Source: an uncultured Phycisphaerales bacterium
Lineage (GTDB): Bacteria > Planctomycetota > Phycisphaerae > WQYP01
Direction of reading: 5' to 3'
NCBI GenBank assembly: GCA_903845195.1
Contig: CAIMWO010000033.1
Span: 2,347 to 66,346 of the forward strand
DNA: 64,000 nt
In this document: positions 16,182 to 41,160 of the stretch, piece after piece
Layout of the letters: every line of letters starts with the position of its first letter
How positions within the stretch are numbered: the first letter of the stretch is position 1
Notes under the pieces: generated by a model
Told to the model about the DNA's origin: nothing
What the model saw: the letters and a program-made list of their open reading frames with translations, nothing else
Database searches by the model: none
Position numbers and translations under genes: made by a program

Positions 16182-16216
16182 TTCTGCGGAATCAGACGCC
16201 ATCCAGCAGTAATCAT

Positions 16217-16255
16217 GCCGCCCGAAAGGATCCTCCTTTCGGGCGGCTTTTCTTT
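16217..16255 (+). terminator. rho-independent terminator downstream of pnp
   Basis: gccgcccgaaagga-tcc-tcctttcgggcggc perfect 13-14 bp GC-rich stem followed by ttttcttt. Confidence 0.7.
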
Positions 16256-16594
16256 ACCCGCACCGTTCCATTGACCCCACCCGATCCGCCGCTAAGATGC
16301 CATTCGTGTAGACGCTGGAAATTCTTGCCGAATGTGGAGATTGATGCCTGTCCCGATGGGCACGCAGAGATTTCTGCAGCGGGGGACCCGATGCGGCCTC
16401 CAAACGGACCGCTCTGGGGCGAATCTGCCATACCGGCAGTAGGCGTATCAGCGCGCCGAGCCCGTCAGCTTACCTCGCAGGCTACACCGGAGTGAAGACG
16501 CAGAACGAAATCCGCGCCCAGAAGGCTGCCGGGAAGTTCCCGAACTGCGGCCCGATTTTTCTGTGTGCCGTGCGCGCTGCGTTGTCAGAATCGT

Positions 16595-34386: not shown

Positions 34387-37300
34387 ATGCACAGCAAACT
34401 GATAGATGTGATTGTTTCCGAAGAAGCGGGAGTGCGAAACCAGTCGCTGGATGCACTGGTGGCAGGGGCATCGCTGGAAGAACTGCTGCGACAGTGTGCA
34501 GCGCTGGATGACTTTCGGCGGACGTGTCCCAATCTGTATCAACGGGTGCGCGCACTCTTCTTCCTGTACGCGATTTACCGCTTCCATGTCCCCCTGTGTG
34601 TGCCCGCAACGGCCCATGGAGCGATTCCCTTTCACGGCTACGAGCAATTACTGGCGCGGCGGTTCGAAGAATCGATCGATACATTTCTGGCCACCCAGAC
34701 TAAGCAGGGCGCCAGTGATCAGCTCTCATCCGCACTGGCCGCGGCATACAAGGACCTGGGATTTCAAACGCTGGCGAATCAGGTGCGTCGAAGCGTCCGA
34801 TCGGTGCGGGGGAATCAGTGGATGTTCCGCGTCGGCCATCCGCTCGATCAACCGCTGCGAATCCGCCCCGAGTTGCTGGCGCGGCACCAGGCCGCAGGAG
34901 GGGATGCCGGAGCGTATCCAATTCTCTGCGAGAAAACGCCCGTGCGCATGGACCTTACGCACTCGGCATGGAGCGACATTTTTTTCCTGGGTATGGACTA
35001 TCCGGAGGGGGCGAAGGTCCTGAACGTGTCGATCGACTTGGCGGTCCACGGTCGCGACCCGCTGCCCCAGCCGCCGGTCGAGGCCTACCTGCGGGTGATC
35101 GATCAGCCGGTGCTGCGGTTGGTGTCGGTGGATCTGGGCGCGAGCGTCGAGATCAGCAGTCTGGCGGAAGTATTCGATTTTGCGCGGGATTACCTGGGCC
35201 TCTTGAAGGCGGCCGTGATTGCCGCCGGGATCGTGCCGCCGGGTCTTGAGGGGTCCGAGCAGCAACTCTCCGACGTGCTGGCGCGATTGGTCGGGCCGGG
35301 GCTGGGGTTGGAGATTGTCAGCAAAATCAACGACATTCCCAAGGGCTCACGCTTGGCGGTATCGACCAACCTGCTGGCGTCGCTGATCAGTGTCTGCATG
35401 CGCGCGACCGGACAAACCAAGCAGTTGACCGGCCCCCTGGAGGAACCGGAGCGCCGCGTGGTAGCCGCGCGGGCGATCCTCGGCGAGTGGCTCGGCGGCA
35501 GCGGCGGCGGGTGGCAGGATTCCGGCGGCGTTTGGCCGGGAATGAAACTCATCTGCGGCGCACGTGCCGAAAAGGGCGATGTGGAAGCCGGCATTTCGCG
35601 CGGCCGGTTGCTGCCCAATCATCGTATTCTGAATCGCGACGATGCCAGCGATGCCGCACGTGAAGCACTCCAGGATTCACTCGTGCTGGTGCACGGCGGA
35701 ATGGCGCAGAATGTCGGTCCGATCCTCGAAATGGTCTCCGAAAAATATCTACTCCGTAGCGAAAAGGAATGGGAAGCCCGTCAGGCGGCCCTCGGCGTGC
35801 TGGACCAGGTCCTCACCGCACTGAAGGCCGGCGATATCCGCGCGGTCGCCAAGGCCACCACCTACAATTTCTTCGGCCCGATCCAGGCCATCATTCCCTG
35901 GGCCAGCACGATGTACACGGAACTGCTCATCGAACGCATCAAGGCACGCCTCGGCGAGGATTTCTGGGGCTTCTGGATGCTCGGCGGTATGTCCGGCGGC
36001 GGCATGGGATTCATTGTCGCCCCGCACCGCAAAGCCGAGACGCAGAAACTGCTGCAGGAAACCATGCGCGACACAAAGAACGAACTGCAAGCTGCATTGC
36101 CCTTCGCCATGGACCCCGTCGTTTACGATTTTGCCATCAACGAACGCGGAACCTGGAGCGAGATTCTCGTCGGTGAGCAGGCCATGATGCCCGCCAGCTA
36201 TTACGGCCTGATGGTGCCCGGATGGATCCGGCAGGATGTGCGGAAATTGACGCCGCTGGTGCGCGGCGACTTGGAGCGGTTCGGTCAGACCTGCGCAAAA
36301 AACGCGGCCATGGGAGAGACCGTCGACGCTGTGTTCCAGCGGCTGATTCCCCATTCGGCACGCGAGAGTTCGCAGAAACAGAGCCTGGGCCAGGTGCTCG
36401 ATGATCTCGGCTTTGATCGGCAGCAGCATGAACAGGTCCGCGGATCGCTGCGGGCCGGCCGGCTCGGGCTGGCGCAAAATCGTCTGCCCGACGCGACGAC
36501 CATTGAAGACGTGCGCCCGGAAGATGTGTTTGATGCCCGCGGCGACGGCGCGGAAAAGTATCGCTCCCTCGGGCAAAAGGCGCTGCAGGATGGACAGGTG
36601 GCGGTCGTAAGTCTCGCAGCAGGCGTGGGAAGCCGCTGGACGCAGGGGGCCGGCGTCGTCAAGGCACTGCATCCGTTCTGCAAACTGGGAGGGCGGCATC
36701 GAAGTTTCCTCGAAGTGCATTTGGCAAAAAGCCGGCGGGTATCGCAGGAGACCAACTCGGCAATCCCCCACGTCGTCACGACGAGCTGGCTGACGCACGA
36801 CCCACTCGCCAATTTTCTGGCACGGAGCAACAACTACAAGTATCCGGGCGAGGTTGTGTTGTCGCCGGGACGCGCCGTGGGCCTGCGAATGGTCCCCATG
36901 GTGCGGGACCTGCGGTTTGCCTGGGAGGAAATGCCGCAGCAGCAGTTGGATGAGCAGAAGCAGAAGATGCGGGAATCAGGCCGATCCGCGTTGATCGGAT
37001 GGGCGCAAGCCGCCGGCGAGGGGAGCGATTACACCGACAATCTCCCCGCACAATGCCTGCACCCCGTCGGCCATTGGTTTGAGATTCCCAACATGCTGCG
37101 GAACGGCATCCTTGCGGGGCTGATCGAAAAACGCCCGCAACTCAAGTACCTGATGCTGCATAACATCGATACGCTCGGCGCCGATGTCGATGCCCGGCTG
37201 CTGGGGCTTCACATCGATCGTGGCACCTGCCTGTCCTTCGAAGTCATCGGCCGGAGGATCGAGGATCGCGGCGGCGGCTTGGCGCGGGTCGATGGACGCG

Positions 37301-37722
37301 TGCGTCTGCTCGAAGGCCTCGCAATGCCGCGGGAAGAGGACGAATTCGGACTGAGCTTCTATAACTCAATGACGACCTGGATCGACATCGATCAACTCCT
37401 CACAGTCTTCGGGCTGACCCGCGATGAGCTTAGCAATGTCGAAAAGGTGGCGGCAGCCGTGCGGACCATCGGCGCACGCATGCCGACCTACATCACCCTC
37501 AAAGATGTAAAGAAACGCTGGGGCCAGGGGCAGGAGGATGTCTTCCCCGTGGCGCAGTTTGAAAAGCTCTGGGGGGACATGACGGCGCTGCCGGAAGTGG
37601 GCTGCGGATTCTTCGTAGTGGACCGCCGGCGTGGGCAACAACTGAAAGACCAGGCGCAGTTGGACGGGTGGTACCGGGAGGGGAACGCCGCTTACCTGGA
37701 AACGCTCTGCGCGTGGAGCTGA
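34387..37722 (+). CDS. 1111-aa fusion: N-terminal ~180 aa unknown, a GHMP-kinase-like (fucokinase-type) sugar kinase domain with a degenerate glycine-rich loop, and a C-terminal UDPGP-family (UDP-sugar/UDP-GlcNAc pyrophosphorylase-type) nucleotidyltransferase
   Basis: GHMP motif 1-like PVRMDLTHSAWSDIFFLGMDYPEGAKVLNVSIDL. Motif 2 position DIPKGSRLAVSTNLLASLISV (compare Fkp NLPKGSGMGTSSILGAATLAV). GGSGGGWQDSGG (Fkp GTGGGWQDQVGG). UDPGP: VVSLAAGVGSRWTQGAGVVKALHPF, IPHVVTTSWLTHDPLANFL, LMLHNIDTLGADVD. Confidence 0.6.
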   Translation: MHSKLIDVIVSEEAGVRNQSLDALVAGASLEELLRQCAALDDFRRTCPNLYQRVRALFFLYAIYRFHVPLCVPATAHGAIPFHGYEQLLARRFEESIDTFLATQTKQGASDQLSSALAAAYKDLGFQTLANQVRRSVRSVRGNQWMFRVGHPLDQPLRIRPELLARHQAAGGDAGAYPILCEKTPVRMDLTHSAWSDIFFLGMDYPEGAKVLNVSIDLAVHGRDPLPQPPVEAYLRVIDQPVLRLVSVDLGASVEISSLAEVFDFARDYLGLLKAAVIAAGIVPPGLEGSEQQLSDVLARLVGPGLGLEIVSKINDIPKGSRLAVSTNLLASLISVCMRATGQTKQLTGPLEEPERRVVAARAILGEWLGGSGGGWQDSGGVWPGMKLICGARAEKGDVEAGISRGRLLPNHRILNRDDASDAAREALQDSLVLVHGGMAQNVGPILEMVSEKYLLRSEKEWEARQAALGVLDQVLTALKAGDIRAVAKATTYNFFGPIQAIIPWASTMYTELLIERIKARLGEDFWGFWMLGGMSGGGMGFIVAPHRKAETQKLLQETMRDTKNELQAALPFAMDPVVYDFAINERGTWSEILVGEQAMMPASYYGLMVPGWIRQDVRKLTPLVRGDLERFGQTCAKNAAMGETVDAVFQRLIPHSARESSQKQSLGQVLDDLGFDRQQHEQVRGSLRAGRLGLAQNRLPDATTIEDVRPEDVFDARGDGAEKYRSLGQKALQDGQVAVVSLAAGVGSRWTQGAGVVKALHPFCKLGGRHRSFLEVHLAKSRRVSQETNSAIPHVVTTSWLTHDPLANFLARSNNYKYPGEVVLSPGRAVGLRMVPMVRDLRFAWEEMPQQQLDEQKQKMRESGRSALIGWAQAAGEGSDYTDNLPAQCLHPVGHWFEIPNMLRNGILAGLIEKRPQLKYLMLHNIDTLGADVDARLLGLHIDRGTCLSFEVIGRRIEDRGGGLARVDGRVRLLEGLAMPREEDEFGLSFYNSMTTWIDIDQLLTVFGLTRDELSNVEKVAAAVRTIGARMPTYITLKDVKKRWGQGQEDVFPVAQFEKLWGDMTALPEVGCGFFVVDRRRGQQLKDQAQLDGWYREGNAAYLETLCAWS

Positions 37723-37769
37723 ACCAGAGTCTGCAACGCCATGGAACCACGACTGCACGATGTGGAATA

Positions 37770-37783
37770 ATTTTGCATGCAAA
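37770..37783. promoter_or_regulatory. perfect 14-bp AT-rich palindrome TTTTGCATGCAAAA
   Basis: Read directly, just upstream of the tandem structured repeat. Candidate dimeric regulator site. Confidence 0.3.
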
Positions 37784-37792
37784 AATAAAAAA

Positions 37793-37958
37793 GCCGTGTG
37801 GAGGAGGGTAAGTGTCCACACGGCTTGGCGGAGGAGGAAACGAGTACTTGAAACCGCGGCGTGTGCCTTGCGACGACACGCCGACGGGTTGTTGATAAAG
37901 GCCGCGAGTTCGAGGGTTAGTCCACTCGCGGCTTGGCGGAGGAGGAAACGAGTATTGG
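37793..37958. repeat. two tandem ~108-bp units, each a 9-bp-stem hairpin with a 14-nt loop followed by the conserved motif TTGGCGGAGGAGGAAACGAGTA(C/T)TG; a third 8-bp hairpin lies between them
   Basis: Unit 1: gccgtgtgg-aggagggtaagtgt-ccacacggc + ttggcggaggaggaaacgagtacttg (37793-37850). Unit 2: gccgcgagt-tcgagggttagtcc-actcgcggc + ttggcggaggaggaaacgagtattgg (37901-37958). Spacer hairpin cggcgtgt..acacgccg. Confidence 0.7.
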
Positions 37959-38388
37959 TCAGCGGCTTGGCTGCTGAGTGATCGTCCCACTTGACCATTC
38001 AGTAACTGTTGCCGCGGCATTTCCACACAATTCAGGTGCTCAGACCGCCGGTCTGGTCCTGAATTATTCATTTGTCATGCTGGAGTAAAAAGCAACAGGC
38101 GTGCCAGATCTGATGTGAAGGTTTTAGTTTTTTCGCCAGCGTGATAGTGAGCCAAAAAATCGCTCTAAAAGCGTGTTTTATGGCGAAAATGCGGGGTAAA
38201 TGCTGGTCAAAAATCACAGGGGAGGTGAGAATTGGTTTTTCGTATGCTGATGGCGGCTGCGTAAATGATCATCAAACAGGCACGGCGGGGGTTCCGGGTG
38301 CCCAACGATCACGCAGAGGCGGTCGCGATGGCGGGTTTTGCGGGTGATGGCGATGTTTAAGCTCTGGTTTAGAAATGATTTACAAGCG

Positions 38389-41160
38389 ATGAAGCGGATT
38401 GCCTGGCGGGGGCTTGGCCTCTCCATTCTGGGCCTATTCATGGGTTTGCTGGCCGCATGCCCCTCTTCGGAAGATGTTCGCCCCACTTCAAATACTACGA
38501 ATTTGGCCCCGATGAGCGTCGATTGGCCGCTGTTTGCCACCCGCCGATCGTCAAACTATCTGCGGTTGGACCTTCCCAGCGTTGTCGTGGGTACAAAGAT
38601 CGATGTAGGTGTCATGGACGGGGTGGCGGTTCAGATTTCATCCCTGCGCGTCTACCGCAGCACCATGGTCAGTCCCCGGGCTGAGCAGATGACCGGCGAT
38701 CCGCGGATCACCATCGACGCCGGAAGTTATCTCGTGCCGCTGCCCTTGGAGCAGGCTGAAGATCACCGCGTCTTCGAAGTCAAAGATCCGATGCCGCTCT
38801 ACATGAAGGTCGACGTGGCGGCGACGGCAGCGCCCGGTGACTACCGGTTGCCCGTGATCATCAAGGCACCCGGACGTGAGCCCATCACCTGCGCCGTACT
38901 GCTGACGGTCTCCGAGATTGTATTGCCGACCGAGCAGCGCGTCCTTGCTGCCGCGACCACGACCATCGACGAACTGTCACGGCTGTTCCCCGCAACCTTC
39001 GGAAGTTTCAACGCGGGATATCTGGATCGTGCAGAGCCTGAGCATGCCGCGGCCGTGGCCCAGCTCGACACAATGGTCAAAGCTGGCCAGCGCGAAGGGC
39101 TGGCGTTGTTCGTGGAGGATCTTTGCCCGGCGGTGAAAGTAGACGATGTGGGGCGGGTGAATATCGATTGGGATGCGTACGATCGTGTGATGTCGCCGTA
39201 CATGGACGGAACGGCATTTGCCGATCGCGTGCCGTTGCAGGTGTGGCTGGCGCCGGTGCCGCCGCGGCGGATTCGCGACTCCGCGGTGCAACTGCGTCAG
39301 TACCTGGCCACCTGCGCCGAGCACTTTGCCGCCAAGGGATGGGTGGCGACTCCCGCCTTTATGCATCCTGCATTGGTCGAGGCCATGGGCGATGCGGCAG
39401 AGTCGCCCGAGAAAGCGGAATTGCGCACACAGATCAGCAAAATTCTGCAGATGCACATGTCACGCGACGTGCTGGCGGTGACCACTCCCGACGGGCAGGT
39501 GCCGCACCCGCGGATGTGGGTGGTGGATGATACCGATCCGCGGCTGCCTCCGGCGGGTGCGCTGGCGACGGAACAGAGCGTTCGCGTCTGGCCGTGGGTG
39601 TGTGCGGCGCGCGGTGTGAAAGGATTCGTCTGGCGCGGCGCGGTCGAACATGCGGATGAAGTCGCCAAAGGACAGGAGAATGTCCTCTCGCCGGGCGCCG
39701 GCCGGCGGCCGCTGCTGGTGGCGCAGGCACACCAGTCGAAAGATAAGAAAGGGGCTGCGACAGGCGAACAGGTCGAGGTATTGCCAACGCTGCGGATGGC
39801 GTGGCTGAATGCGGGAATTAATGACACGGCCATGCTGGGTTTGCTGGAGAAACGCAGCGATCCGAGCCTCGTCAGCGAAGTCCTGGCCGGTGTGGTAGGC
39901 CGCACCGGCGTCACGCTTTCGCTCGCGGGCGCGGAAATTCCGACCGCGCCCGCAGGTTATCTGTATGCCGGCTGGCCCGGCGAATTGAAAACCTGGCAGG
40001 CCTTGCCCTTGCTGATGGAAAGGCTGGTGCTGGCGAACGATCCGGGGCACCAGGTGAAAGTGTCCGCGGATGATCCGATATATCTTCAGGCCAAGGTCTG
40101 GCTGGGCGATGCGCATCGTCCCGCGGCGCGCGTGGGCGGATATCGCTTTATGCTCCAGCAGGGCCGCGAGGGAGCGGTGGTCGAATCGCTGATGGATCTG
40201 CTGGTGGAGAACCCGGTGGATTCGCCGACTGAAATGGAATTCAAATTTCCTAATCTGCCGGGTGATTTCGACATTGCCGGCGCCACCGATATCGGCGGCG
40301 GAAAACTGGAACGCACGATCGAAGGCTACGGCCTGGCACGCGTCGGCGTGAAAATGGCAGCCCACCTGGAATCGATCCGTGAATGCCCCGCGCTCACCGA
40401 TGCTCTGGTCCGCGAGCGGACCGGCAGCGCCATGGTGCATCTGCCTCTGACGGTTCCGATCTACAGAATGAAGAGCTTTCAGATGTCCCCCCGTGTGGAC
40501 GGCCGGGGCGATGACTGGCCGCAGGACGCCGCAGGCGCAGCGTTTGGCCCGATGCCGGTCGGCCTGCGGTATCTGAGCCGGGTGGATGTGCTGAAAGGCG
40601 CCGTTCGCCAGGAGCAGACGCCCGCGATCGCACGCTGGACCTATGATAATGATTTTCTATACGCGCTCATCCGTTGCGATCAGAATGGCATGTCAGATGA
40701 AAAAAATAACGAGTGGCCCTCGCAGGATGGACGCTGGTGGGGGACCGATGGCGTTCAAGTGCAAGTCTGCGGCGGCGGTGTGCTCACGGGCAAAAAAGTG
40801 TTCGTCGTCGGCATCAAACCCAGCGGAGTGGTGCTGACCCGAGTCGGCAAAGTGGAATCGGGCATGAATACCGCATCGATCAAATGGGCCGAGGGCCCGG
40901 CGAACGTCAAATTTGGAATCACCACGGATAAGACCGGCTACTTGGTGGAACTGGCGATTCCACGTAAATGGTTTTCCGAACCGAACCCGCCGGCCACTGC
41001 CACGGGAGGTGGGCGTTCCGATGGCGCCGTCGGCGGAGCCGCCCTGTGGCGCATCAACATCCTGCGGCATCGCGCCAGCGATCTGGAAAGCGCAAGCTGG
41101 AGCGGTCCCGTAGTCGACGACACGGACATCGGAATGATGGGCCTGCTCGTAGGGGAGTGA
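38389..41160 (+). CDS. large lipoprotein (about 924 aa) with C-terminal CBM9/DOMON-like carbohydrate-binding-type domain; N-terminal two-thirds unassigned
   Basis: MKRIAWRGLGLSILGLFMGLLAAC lipobox. C-terminus WTYDNDFLYALIRCDQ...WWGTDGVQVQVCGGG...VFVVGIKPSG...YLVELAIPRKWF resembles CBM9-like folds. Confidence 0.5.
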   Translation: MKRIAWRGLGLSILGLFMGLLAACPSSEDVRPTSNTTNLAPMSVDWPLFATRRSSNYLRLDLPSVVVGTKIDVGVMDGVAVQISSLRVYRSTMVSPRAEQMTGDPRITIDAGSYLVPLPLEQAEDHRVFEVKDPMPLYMKVDVAATAAPGDYRLPVIIKAPGREPITCAVLLTVSEIVLPTEQRVLAAATTTIDELSRLFPATFGSFNAGYLDRAEPEHAAAVAQLDTMVKAGQREGLALFVEDLCPAVKVDDVGRVNIDWDAYDRVMSPYMDGTAFADRVPLQVWLAPVPPRRIRDSAVQLRQYLATCAEHFAAKGWVATPAFMHPALVEAMGDAAESPEKAELRTQISKILQMHMSRDVLAVTTPDGQVPHPRMWVVDDTDPRLPPAGALATEQSVRVWPWVCAARGVKGFVWRGAVEHADEVAKGQENVLSPGAGRRPLLVAQAHQSKDKKGAATGEQVEVLPTLRMAWLNAGINDTAMLGLLEKRSDPSLVSEVLAGVVGRTGVTLSLAGAEIPTAPAGYLYAGWPGELKTWQALPLLMERLVLANDPGHQVKVSADDPIYLQAKVWLGDAHRPAARVGGYRFMLQQGREGAVVESLMDLLVENPVDSPTEMEFKFPNLPGDFDIAGATDIGGGKLERTIEGYGLARVGVKMAAHLESIRECPALTDALVRERTGSAMVHLPLTVPIYRMKSFQMSPRVDGRGDDWPQDAAGAAFGPMPVGLRYLSRVDVLKGAVRQEQTPAIARWTYDNDFLYALIRCDQNGMSDEKNNEWPSQDGRWWGTDGVQVQVCGGGVLTGKKVFVVGIKPSGVVLTRVGKVESGMNTASIKWAEGPANVKFGITTDKTGYLVELAIPRKWFSEPNPPATATGGGRSDGAVGGAALWRINILRHRASDLESASWSGPVVDDTDIGMMGLLVGE

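Follow-up and report, generated by a model that had tools for sequence, protein, structure and literature searches.

A predicted two-module small RNA gene with a sigma-54-type promoter and an anti-Shine-Dalgarno motif in an uncultured Phycisphaerales bacterium

The 666-bp intergenic gap at positions 37723-38388 of a 64,000-nucleotide stretch of DNA from an uncultured Phycisphaerales bacterium (hereafter the window; contig CAIMWO010000033.1) lies between a gene for a UDPGP-domain protein and a gene for a lipoprotein, both on the plus strand, and contains a pair of structured repeats. We predict that these repeats belong to the minus strand, where they form one non-coding small RNA (sRNA) gene composed of two modules. 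We consider it probable, though far from certain, that this gene encodes a sigma-54-induced riboregulator that acts in trans through a sequence complementary to Shine-Dalgarno (SD) regions. By every test run, the element represents an undescribed RNA family that likely acts like the known modular anti-SD sRNAs and is a member of none of them.

The repeat consists of two 58-nt units (37789-37846 and 37897-37954 in plus-strand coordinates) that recur with a period of 108 nt and are 79% identical overall. They share a 22-mer, TTGGCGGAGGAGGAAACGAGTA, present as two exact copies in the 64 kb (37825-37846 and 37933-37954) against 0.00 expected from shuffles. Each unit contains a 9-bp stem (GCCGTGTGG/CCACACGGC and GCCGCGAGT/ACTCGCGGC) that encloses a 14-nt loop; three base pairs differ between the units and all three are compensated. 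A third hairpin occupies the spacer between the units (37854-37887), and the perfect palindrome TTTTGCATGCAAAA precedes them at 37771-37784. These features had been described in a first-pass annotation of the window, which also held the region to be neither protein-coding nor a clustered regularly interspaced short palindromic repeat (CRISPR) array. We agree on both points: the TRFLLRQA peptide of the antisense reading frame follows from the repeated codons ACT CGT TTC CTC CTC CGC CAA GCC and merely echoes the repeat, and a CRISPR array is not indicated by only two copies that differ by compensatory changes and are separated by a "spacer" that is itself a hairpin of conserved structure.

The directional signals of the region lie on the minus strand. 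Read in that direction, each unit runs through ...ACUCGUUUCCUCCUCCGCCAAGCC and then into its hairpin; T-runs are found 3' of the hairpins on this strand only, and UUUUUUAUUUUUGC directly follows the perfect 12-bp stem of the second hairpin. The 183-nt minus-strand region folds at -61.2 kcal/mol (z of -5.6 against shuffles) to give three clean stem-loops, with the two C/U-rich stretches left unpaired, and the predicted 302-nt transcript folds at a z of -5.4 against shuffles. In relatives that carry a co-oriented open reading frame (ORF), the stop codon of that ORF directly precedes the module by 15-60 nt, on the same strand as the module. Because the T-runs, a conserved sigma-54-type promoter and the co-oriented ORF of relatives all point to the minus strand, we assign the element to it, and the functional sequence is therefore taken to be CUCGUUUCCUCCUCCGCC, an anti-SD-like stretch 5' of the hairpin. 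Tandem small RNAs were among the candidates of the first-pass annotation, and this idea survives as a two-module RNA gene; its plus-strand reading, a hairpin followed by a GGAGG-rich tail, does not. An RNA on the plus strand, in which the hairpins and the GGAGGAGGA tracts that follow them would form a GGA sponge of the CsrA type, decoy ribosome-binding sites or terminators for the upstream nucleotide-sugar operon, is very improbable. GGA motifs are present and the plus-strand fold also beats shuffles (z of -3.5), but the minus-strand score is stronger, no T-run follows any plus-strand hairpin, no promoter-like site was found on that strand, relatives show no synteny between the upstream gene and the element, and the strand is fixed by the ORF orientation in relatives. 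A plus-strand sponge of the CsrB/RsmZ type was rejected, since T-runs, promoter and the orientation of the relatives' ORF are all on the other strand.

A sigma-54-type -24/-12 promoter, TGGCACGCCTGTTGCT, is predicted by its consensus match on the minus strand at 38106-38091 (GG at 38105/38104 and GC at 38093/38092), 154 nt upstream of module 1. It is the sole match to TGGCACN5TTGCW in the 64 kb even when one mismatch is allowed, and it has no mismatches. Assuming the usual 12-nt spacing from the C of the -12 element at 38092, transcription would start near 38080. Equivalent elements are found in all relatives reached through neighboring proteins, 134-252 nt before the first module (TGGCACGACTCTTGCC, TGGCACGGGGGTTGCA, TGGCACGATCGTTGCA, TGGCACGATCGTTGCG, TGGCACGACCGTTGCA and TGGCACACTACTTGCA), so that a sigma-54-type element is present in 8/8 protein-anchored loci. 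Among the matches listed in a wider metagenome search, a same-strand element (GG[CT]A[CT]-N5-T[TC]G[CTA]) is present in 75 of the 78 loci whose upstream sequence extends for at least 650 nt, compared with a background of 0.12 per 650 nt. Farther upstream lies a conserved minus-strand box, TTTGATGATCATTTACGCAGC (38256-38276), with a weaker second copy at 38191-38211 (65-nt spacing). The sequence TGATGATCAWTTACGCAG recurs ~150-175 nt upstream of the -24 element in loci L087, L090, L148 and L194 and in degenerate form in L156, L089, L109 and L115. Since this distance is usual for the sites of enhancer-binding activators, we regard the box at 38256-38276 as a candidate upstream activating sequence for a sigma-54 activator; it may alternatively be a shared control site of the divergent genes.

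The predicted transcript has a leader stem-loop, AAUUCAGGACCAGACCGGCGGUCUGAGCACCUGAAUU (38029-38065, minus strand), that is present in both the minimum-free-energy and centroid structures and whose sequence is not kept in relatives. It is followed at 37962-37978 by what appears to be a decayed module remnant (CUCAGCAGCCAAGCCGC compared with CUCCUCCGCCAAGCCGC, 82% identity), now the short 5' hairpin of module 1; this degenerate GCGGCTTGGC... segment suggests that a third module once stood upstream of module 1. Module 1 (37892-37958, minus strand, as are all parts named here) scores 69.0 bits (E of 1.3e-15) with R1, the covariance model of the module, and comprises a single-stranded seed, CUCGUUUCCUCCUCCGCC (37952-37935), and a predicted hairpin, GCCGCGAGU/ACUCGCGGC with loop GGACUAACCCUCGA (37932-37901). 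This hairpin is followed by CUUUAUC, which is not a true U-tract, and read-through into module 2 would therefore be expected. The spacer stem-loop, CCGUCGGCGUGUCGUCGCAAGGCACACGCCGCGG (37854-37887; z of -4.8), constitutes the 5' hairpin of module 2, and relatives have a hairpin of unrelated sequence at this position. Module 2 (37784-37850; R1 score of 79.7 bits, E of 2.9e-18) repeats the single-stranded seed CUCGUUUCCUCCUCCGCC at 37844-37827 and ends in a 12-bp hairpin whose arms (37826-37815 and 37802-37791) are 100% complementary around the loop CACUUACCCUCC; a second CCUCCUCC spans the loop and stem of this hairpin, and a U6AU5 tract follows at 37792-37781. Within the loops, module 2 has ACCCUCC(UCC) and module 1 has ACCCUCG. 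The 3' end of module 2 has the form of a canonical Rho-independent terminator, which a simple terminator scan with a loop limit of 8 nt passes over given its 12-nt loop. The right half of the AT palindrome, which has no strand of its own, is the end of this U-tract (UUUUUGC), and the half that forms the U-tract (reverse complement GGCTTTTTTATTTTTGC) is kept in relatives and the other half is not; the palindrome is for the most part the terminator U-tract, and its palindromy is probably incidental. For the 183-nt region, both the minimum-free-energy and the centroid fold leave the 18-nt seed unpaired; for the full 302-nt transcript, the minimum-free-energy fold pairs only part of it.

The conservation of the element is best judged from loci that were not found via the motif. 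The module, the identical 18-mer and the sigma-54-type -24/-12 element are present together in 7/7 relatives reached via neighboring proteins. In the 8 loci not found via the motif, the 18-mer CTCGTTTCCTCCTCCGCC is identical in 15/15 modules (two each in the window, L087, L090 and L170, the last a variant of L089; three in L089; and one each in L212, L233, L234 and L235), and the adjacent protein falls to 39-55% identity across loci in which the 18-mer stays invariant. Metagenome contigs were also scanned for the exact 18-mer, a search that does not allow seed variants and that matched at least 120 stretches; at least about 100 metagenome loci carry the module, with one to five modules each. 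Examples of module number are two in the window, three in L089, five in L156, at least three in L190 and one each in L233, L234 and L235. Two extra modules of L194 deviate from the 18-mer at base 1 only. Among the matches listed, together with L087-L091 and the window, 113 of 142 occurrences of the 18-mer share the same anatomy of motif, 1-3 nt, GC hairpin and T-run, and the remainder are chance matches inside genes. Three metagenome contigs hold an intergenic region identical to that of the window.

Covariation supports the structure of the module. In an alignment of 52 diverse modules from the matches listed, the 10-bp stem of the 3' hairpin is paired in 93% of cells and compensatory double changes occur at 8/10 pairs; alignments slid by 1-3 columns pair 30-49% of cells, and 0/500 shuffles reach the observed values. 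The motif columns of this alignment are invariant. Among the 106 distinct modules in the matches listed, the hairpin contains CCCUCC in 81 and the tail is T-rich in 96. For 112 listed modules, the upstream segments of 52 nt have a mean z of -1.87 compared with -0.02 for controls, and 44% compared with 8% fall below -2; as these 5' segments fold though their sequences are unrelated, the 5' hairpin is a structural part of the module. Searched with the R1 model, the window yields two full modules and no more, each on its minus strand, and the 73 control loci (0.9 Mb), taken from other Planctomycetota, Verrucomicrobiota and Chloroflexota, yield none. Scores with this model are 49-85 bits for true modules and 23-30 bits for chance matches to the 18-mer. 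Other CCTCCTCC sites in the window (20238, 22172, 52776/52893 and 61918) were rejected as modules; they lie within coding DNA and have no hairpins.

These data bear on whether the repeat acts as DNA. It is tandem and palindromic, and one copy of the module is on a contig classed as viral, features that could belong to a mobile element like a repetitive extragenic palindromic (REP) sequence or a miniature inverted-repeat transposable element, to a protein-binding array or to a local duplication with no function. We nevertheless find a DNA-level repeat scarcely credible: there are two copies in the 64 kb and none elsewhere in the window, terminal repeats and target duplications are lacking, the position beside one gene family is fixed across distant relatives, and compensatory stem changes beside an invariant linker are what an RNA would be expected to show. 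The REP-like element proposed in the first-pass annotation is not supported, given the copy number in the 64 kb and the fixed synteny, and its suggestion of protein-binding DNA sites finds no support either.

Synteny indicates that the element is linked to the downstream lipoprotein gene and not to the nucleotide-sugar operon, contrary to the earlier proposal of an insulator between the two. All lipoprotein homologues examined have the RNA element upstream, on the opposite strand. It has two modules beside P0122 (55% identity; L087/L088) and P0127 (49%; L090/L091), three beside P0123 (50%; L089) and one each beside P0130 (45%; L233, from an NCBI metagenome-assembled genome (MAG) named Phycisphaerae bacterium), P0150 (41%; L234) and P0158 (39%; L235). 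L234 is on the 932-kb contig of L085, ~230 kb from the UDPGP gene of that genome, and the RNA gene therefore travels with the lipoprotein gene. Among the matches listed, a lipoprotein homologue is present at 37 of the 54 loci with at least 1.2 kb upstream, and most of the others have a second type of 5' domain, rich in GC, that is described below; in many loci the RNA gene is found together with a homologue of 21-56% identity. A link to the upstream gene was rejected, given that three metagenome relatives with a 72-78% identical UDPGP-domain protein have other downstream genes and lack the element, which is also absent beside the homologue of this gene in 80 genome loci that are more distant. 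The flanking proteins have named homologues in MAGs of Tepidisphaeraceae, Tepidisphaerales, Phycisphaerales and Phycisphaerae, which places the window in the Phycisphaerae (Planctomycetota) and probably in the Tepidisphaerales.

The lipoprotein gene (38389-41160, plus strand) is divergent from the RNA gene and is context, not part of the RNA. We placed its start at the ATG at 38389, which yields a 923-aa product with a lipoprotein signal peptide ending in ...LLAAC. This protein has no Pfam domain match, but its AlphaFold model (predicted local distance difference test 82.8, predicted template modelling score 0.82) is matched by Foldseek to GH123 beta-N-acetylgalactosaminidases and related Nga enzymes (5l7r, 8k2i and 5fqe; E of ~1e-13) and, in its C-terminal part, to CBM9 (1i82; E of 1e-9). 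Sequence support for these assignments is weak, and we predict from the model a GH123-like glycoside-hydrolase fold with a C-terminal CBM9-like domain. The locus couples the RNA gene to glycan-related proteins. The upstream UDPGP-domain protein (1111 aa; 34387-37722, plus strand) matches Pfam UDPGP at residues 893-1008 only and, over its full length, shares 62-70% identity with its counterparts in MAGs labelled Planctomycetota, Verrucomicrobiota, Chloroflexota, Armatimonadota and others. Such identity is unusually high for a largely unannotated protein, and some of the taxon labels may be binning errors.

A second glycan-related protein is found in relatives on the strand of the RNA. At 30 of 86 loci among the matches listed, the module begins 15-60 nt past the stop codon of a 100-110-aa ORF in the same orientation. 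The product of this ORF has the N-terminus MTSITKDG... and an internal ...GEYRFRYVADGxWFTDFASHG... sequence and is assigned by Pfam to AMPK1_CBM/CBM_48, modules of the glycogen-binding type. The full-length ORF starts with ATGACAAGC in L212, L207 and others. In these loci the sigma-54-type element is upstream of the ORF, 380-590 nt from the module, and the lipoprotein homologue is divergent; L212, on a 1.39-Mb contig reached via the small protein P0214, has the whole arrangement together with the exact 18-mer. Other loci (L092, L174 and L128/L132, the last two with MTSEYGLC...WRSVLV*) have short ORFs of 17-25 codons that look like internal-deletion remnants of the CBM48 protein. Those of L128 and L132 begin ~115 nt after the promoter, and the N-terminal MTS survives in all four, with the C-terminal W.SVLV or RQVA in some. 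There is no CBM48 ORF in the window; just after the promoter is a box, ATGACAAATGAATAA (38064-38078, minus strand), that would encode M-T-N-E-stop (four codons), and (A/G)TGACAAGTRAATAA is found after the promoter in L087, L148, L133/L234, L194 and L156. From this resemblance we interpret ATGACAAATGAATAA as a vestige of the start of the CBM48 ORF (MTSITKDG...). The comparison of loci indicates that this ORF decayed several times and that the promoter and 3' module were kept, with the module multiplied to two to five copies in Tepidisphaerales-type loci. That the module persists and multiplies, up to fivefold, while the ORF is intact, shortened or gone argues that the RNA module itself is under selection.

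This history raises the question of whether the module is merely a cis-acting terminator or stability element of the CBM48 mRNA and, in the window, an evolutionary leftover. Both the position of the module directly after the CBM48 ORF in those 30 loci and its ending in a canonical intrinsic terminator fit such a role. We judge it improbable, however: lineages that lost the ORF have retained promoter, exact 18-mer and covarying hairpin and have even multiplied the module two to five times, and elsewhere the module is attached to a different conserved 5' domain, again with no ORF. The seed also has no special complementarity to the ribosome-binding site of its own mRNA; pairing in cis with that site was rejected at -13.2 kcal/mol, compared with -16.0 kcal/mol for controls.

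We therefore return to the riboregulator, and propose that, in response to a physiological signal and with the aid of an activator not encoded nearby, RNA polymerase with sigma-54 would start transcription at ~38080 and produce an RNA of ~300 nt that would end at the intrinsic terminator (stem 37826-37791, U-tract to 37781). The RNA would consist of two modules of ~105 nt, each composed of a 5' hairpin of free sequence, the unpaired 18-nt C/U-rich CUCGUUUCCUCCUCCGCC and a GC-rich 3' hairpin with an ACCCUC(C) loop. As CUCGUUUCCUCCUCCGCC is complementary to GGAGGAGGAAACGAG, a strong SD region plus spacer, the RNA would most likely act in trans. Whole or cut into single modules, it would prevent the initiation of translation by base pairing to the ribosome-binding sites, rich in purines, of target mRNAs, with the dose doubled by the second module. 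The gene itself would descend from the 3' end of the sigma-54-driven mRNA of the small CBM48 protein, the ORF having decayed and the module having been kept and duplicated.

Several observations weigh against this proposal. A search of the window with RNAduplex gave no convincing target, the best non-self duplexes being inside coding DNA, and nothing SD-like precedes the start of the linked lipoprotein gene. Neither rpoN nor a gene for an activator with the GAFTGA motif was found in the window or the flanking loci, and the sigma-54 element is a consensus match. The invariance of the 18-mer in the metagenome set follows by construction from an exact-match search, the unbiased evidence being the protein-anchored loci. 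Finally, an invariant stretch of 18 nt exceeds the typical sRNA seed and fits a single highly conserved partner, such as a protein, rRNA or one mRNA, at least as well as it fits many different mRNAs. The same minus-strand transcript might accordingly sequester an RNA-binding protein or ribosomal component that recognizes the C/U-rich 18-mer, with the modules as binding sites in the manner of CsrB/RsmZ or CrcZ. The 18 nt are indeed invariant while the neighboring protein diverges to 39% identity, module number varies from one to five, a second conserved CCCUCC is displayed in the hairpin loop of those 81 of 106 listed modules, and no mRNA target was found either by the duplex search of the window or at the CBM48 ribosome-binding site. 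We think such titration unlikely, though worth keeping in mind: the locus has no candidate protein linked to it, base pairing is a simple reading of a motif exactly complementary to an SD-type sequence, and the C-rich analogues cuckoo/alpha-r14 and sX13 act by pairing (PMC4615179, PMC10746234). A bolder version of the anti-SD proposal, to which we give tentative credence at most, is a class-wide, sigma-54-driven riboregulator of Phycisphaerae whose invariant 18-nt anti-SD sequence would compete with the 16S rRNA tail for mRNAs led by an SD, or bind one universally conserved partner, and so tie global translation to a glycan-utilisation locus of GH123-like lipoprotein and CBM48 mini-protein; it would have been born as the 3' untranslated region (3' UTR) of the mini-protein mRNA and have repeatedly become a stand-alone sRNA of several modules as the ORF decayed.

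The first-pass annotation had proposed conservation in relatives, further copies of the motif and a covariance-model search of Rfam as checks on the element. The first two were positive, and Rfam 15 returned nothing at the gathering threshold for the window, the region, 20 related loci and 4 "B2" loci. When matches to the region with E of at most 10 are considered, the only bacterial near-matches, both on the minus strand, are sX13 (RF02232; 19.1 bits, E of 0.37) and ar14 (RF02344; 18.7 bits, E of 0.41, 37786-37893); the other two matches are chance ones. A full-text literature search for 12-13-nt motif strings recovered unrelated eukaryotic primers only and no relevant paper.

The closest parallels are the cuckoo RNAs (alpha-r14/NfeR1/SmelC397, and CcsR1-4, that is, RSs0680a-d), which have two to four repeated units, often in tandem, with an ultraconserved CCUCCUCC(C) anti-SD motif (PMC4615179, PMC8034643, PMC10746234). 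In these RNAs and in sX13, C-rich motifs occlude ribosome-binding sites (PMC4615179, PMC10746234, PMC8034643). As in cuckoo RNAs, the stems of the element vary by compensatory change (8/10 pairs) around an invariant C-rich motif; and the cotranscription of CcsR with a small upstream DUF1127 ORF (PMC4615179, PMC8034643, PMC10746234) is paralleled by the CBM48 ORF and module of relatives. However, the two are not homologous (18.7 bits compared with an RF02344 gathering score of 58.8). Cuckoo RNAs have two to four adjacent hairpins with CCUCCUCCC in the loop (PMC4615179), whereas the main motif of the element is in an unpaired linker 5' of the hairpin and has 18 invariant nt; CcsR is RpoHI/II-dependent and nfeR1 has an N17-CTATAT-type promoter (PMC10746234), whereas the promoter here is of the sigma-54 type; and the hosts are Alphaproteobacteria in the one case and Phycisphaerae in the other. 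sX13 of Xanthomonas also has unpaired C-rich motifs, which target G-rich/SD regions of many mRNAs, and has one motif in its terminator hairpin, but the element scores 19.1 bits against the sX13 gathering score of 50. The 6C RNA of Actinobacteria and RoxS/RsaE of Firmicutes belong to the wider class of sRNAs with C-rich seeds; unlike the element, they and sX13 present their C-runs in loops and are single-copy, and they are not known to have sigma-54 promoters.

Two further systems resemble the element in their control or origin. NrsZ of Pseudomonas is an intergenic, non-coding regulator with an RpoN (sigma-54) promoter and conserved modules parted by spacer stem-loops, the number of which varies among species from one to six (PMC4253122), compared with one to five here; in the element the regulatory role is predicted and the promoter known as a motif match. 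NrsZ differs in its ACAGGCAG motif, which is displayed in hairpin loops and forms a kissing complex that activates rhlA (PMC4253122), whereas the element has a linear C/U-rich anti-SD stretch and lacks ACAGGCAG; there is no sequence similarity or Rfam match between them, and the element is not next to ntrC. GlnZ from glnA, a 3' UTR sRNA of a sigma-54-dependent mRNA (PMC9731577), is similar to the ORF-bearing relatives, in which the module is the 3' end of an mRNA with a sigma-54-type promoter and the terminator is shared. In the window, unlike GlnZ, the ORF is gone and the module is stand-alone and duplicated, and the sequences are unrelated.

We also made several observations beside the main subject. 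A second type of locus has a sigma-54-like element (TGGCAY-N5-TTCGCW), a conserved GC-rich domain of ~70 nt (GCGCGGUUGGUUCCCACGGGCAGUACCGCCCGCAGACGGUCUGCGGGCGGUAC...CCGGGGGC) and then the anti-SD/terminator module. This type is found in L096, L103, L106, L110, L116, L125, L145, L151, L152, L157, L168, L172 (~1620-1900), L183, L193, L199 and L200, not beside the lipoprotein gene. The GC-rich domain has no Rfam match at E of at most 1 in the 4 "B2" loci, and from its anatomy we consider the second type probably a sibling sRNA with a distinct 5' domain. In type-A leaders, CGUGGGA(C) recurs 45-60 nt before the first module (~37990-37983 in the window, and in L087, L090, L148, L156, L190, L194 and L233), and is a possible pairing partner for the UCCACACG arm of the terminator hairpin. 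On viral contigs, 18 of 19 exact 18-mer matches are chance ones within one phage coding sequence. The exception (L222, 12644-12703, minus strand, on a 35-kb contig classed as viral by IMG/VR) is a genuine-looking module of 50.2 bits with the motif, a GCCGGCGGUG hairpin and UUUAAUUU; this contig could be a provirus or a misclassified bacterial contig. Elsewhere in the window, a cyclic di-AMP riboswitch (ydaO/yuaA, RF00379) is at 16320-16499 on the plus strand (61.2 bits compared with a gathering score of 38), and an ordinary terminator composed of a hairpin and T-run is just upstream of it at 16214-16256.

Soil Phycisphaerae (the Tepidisphaerales/WD2101 group) are abundant and hardly cultured. 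For the whole Planctomycetes-Verrucomicrobia-Chlamydiae group, a 2022 survey counted just eight annotated sRNAs (PMC9029176). The element is a well-defined candidate, with clear predicted ends, a predicted class of regulator (sigma-54 with an enhancer-binding activator), an exact seed and a discriminating covariance model. Its occurrence suggests an independent origin in Planctomycetota of the anti-SD repeat strategy, for which Alphaproteobacteria and Xanthomonas are the main known examples. The loci form an evolutionary series from an intact small ORF with a 3' module, through truncated ORFs, to one to five modules with no ORF, which bears on how sRNAs derived from 3' UTRs become independent genes. 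If our interpretation is true, this would be, as far as our literature search shows, the first sRNA family of Planctomycetota with a proposed function, and a clear natural series of an mRNA 3' end turning into an sRNA gene.

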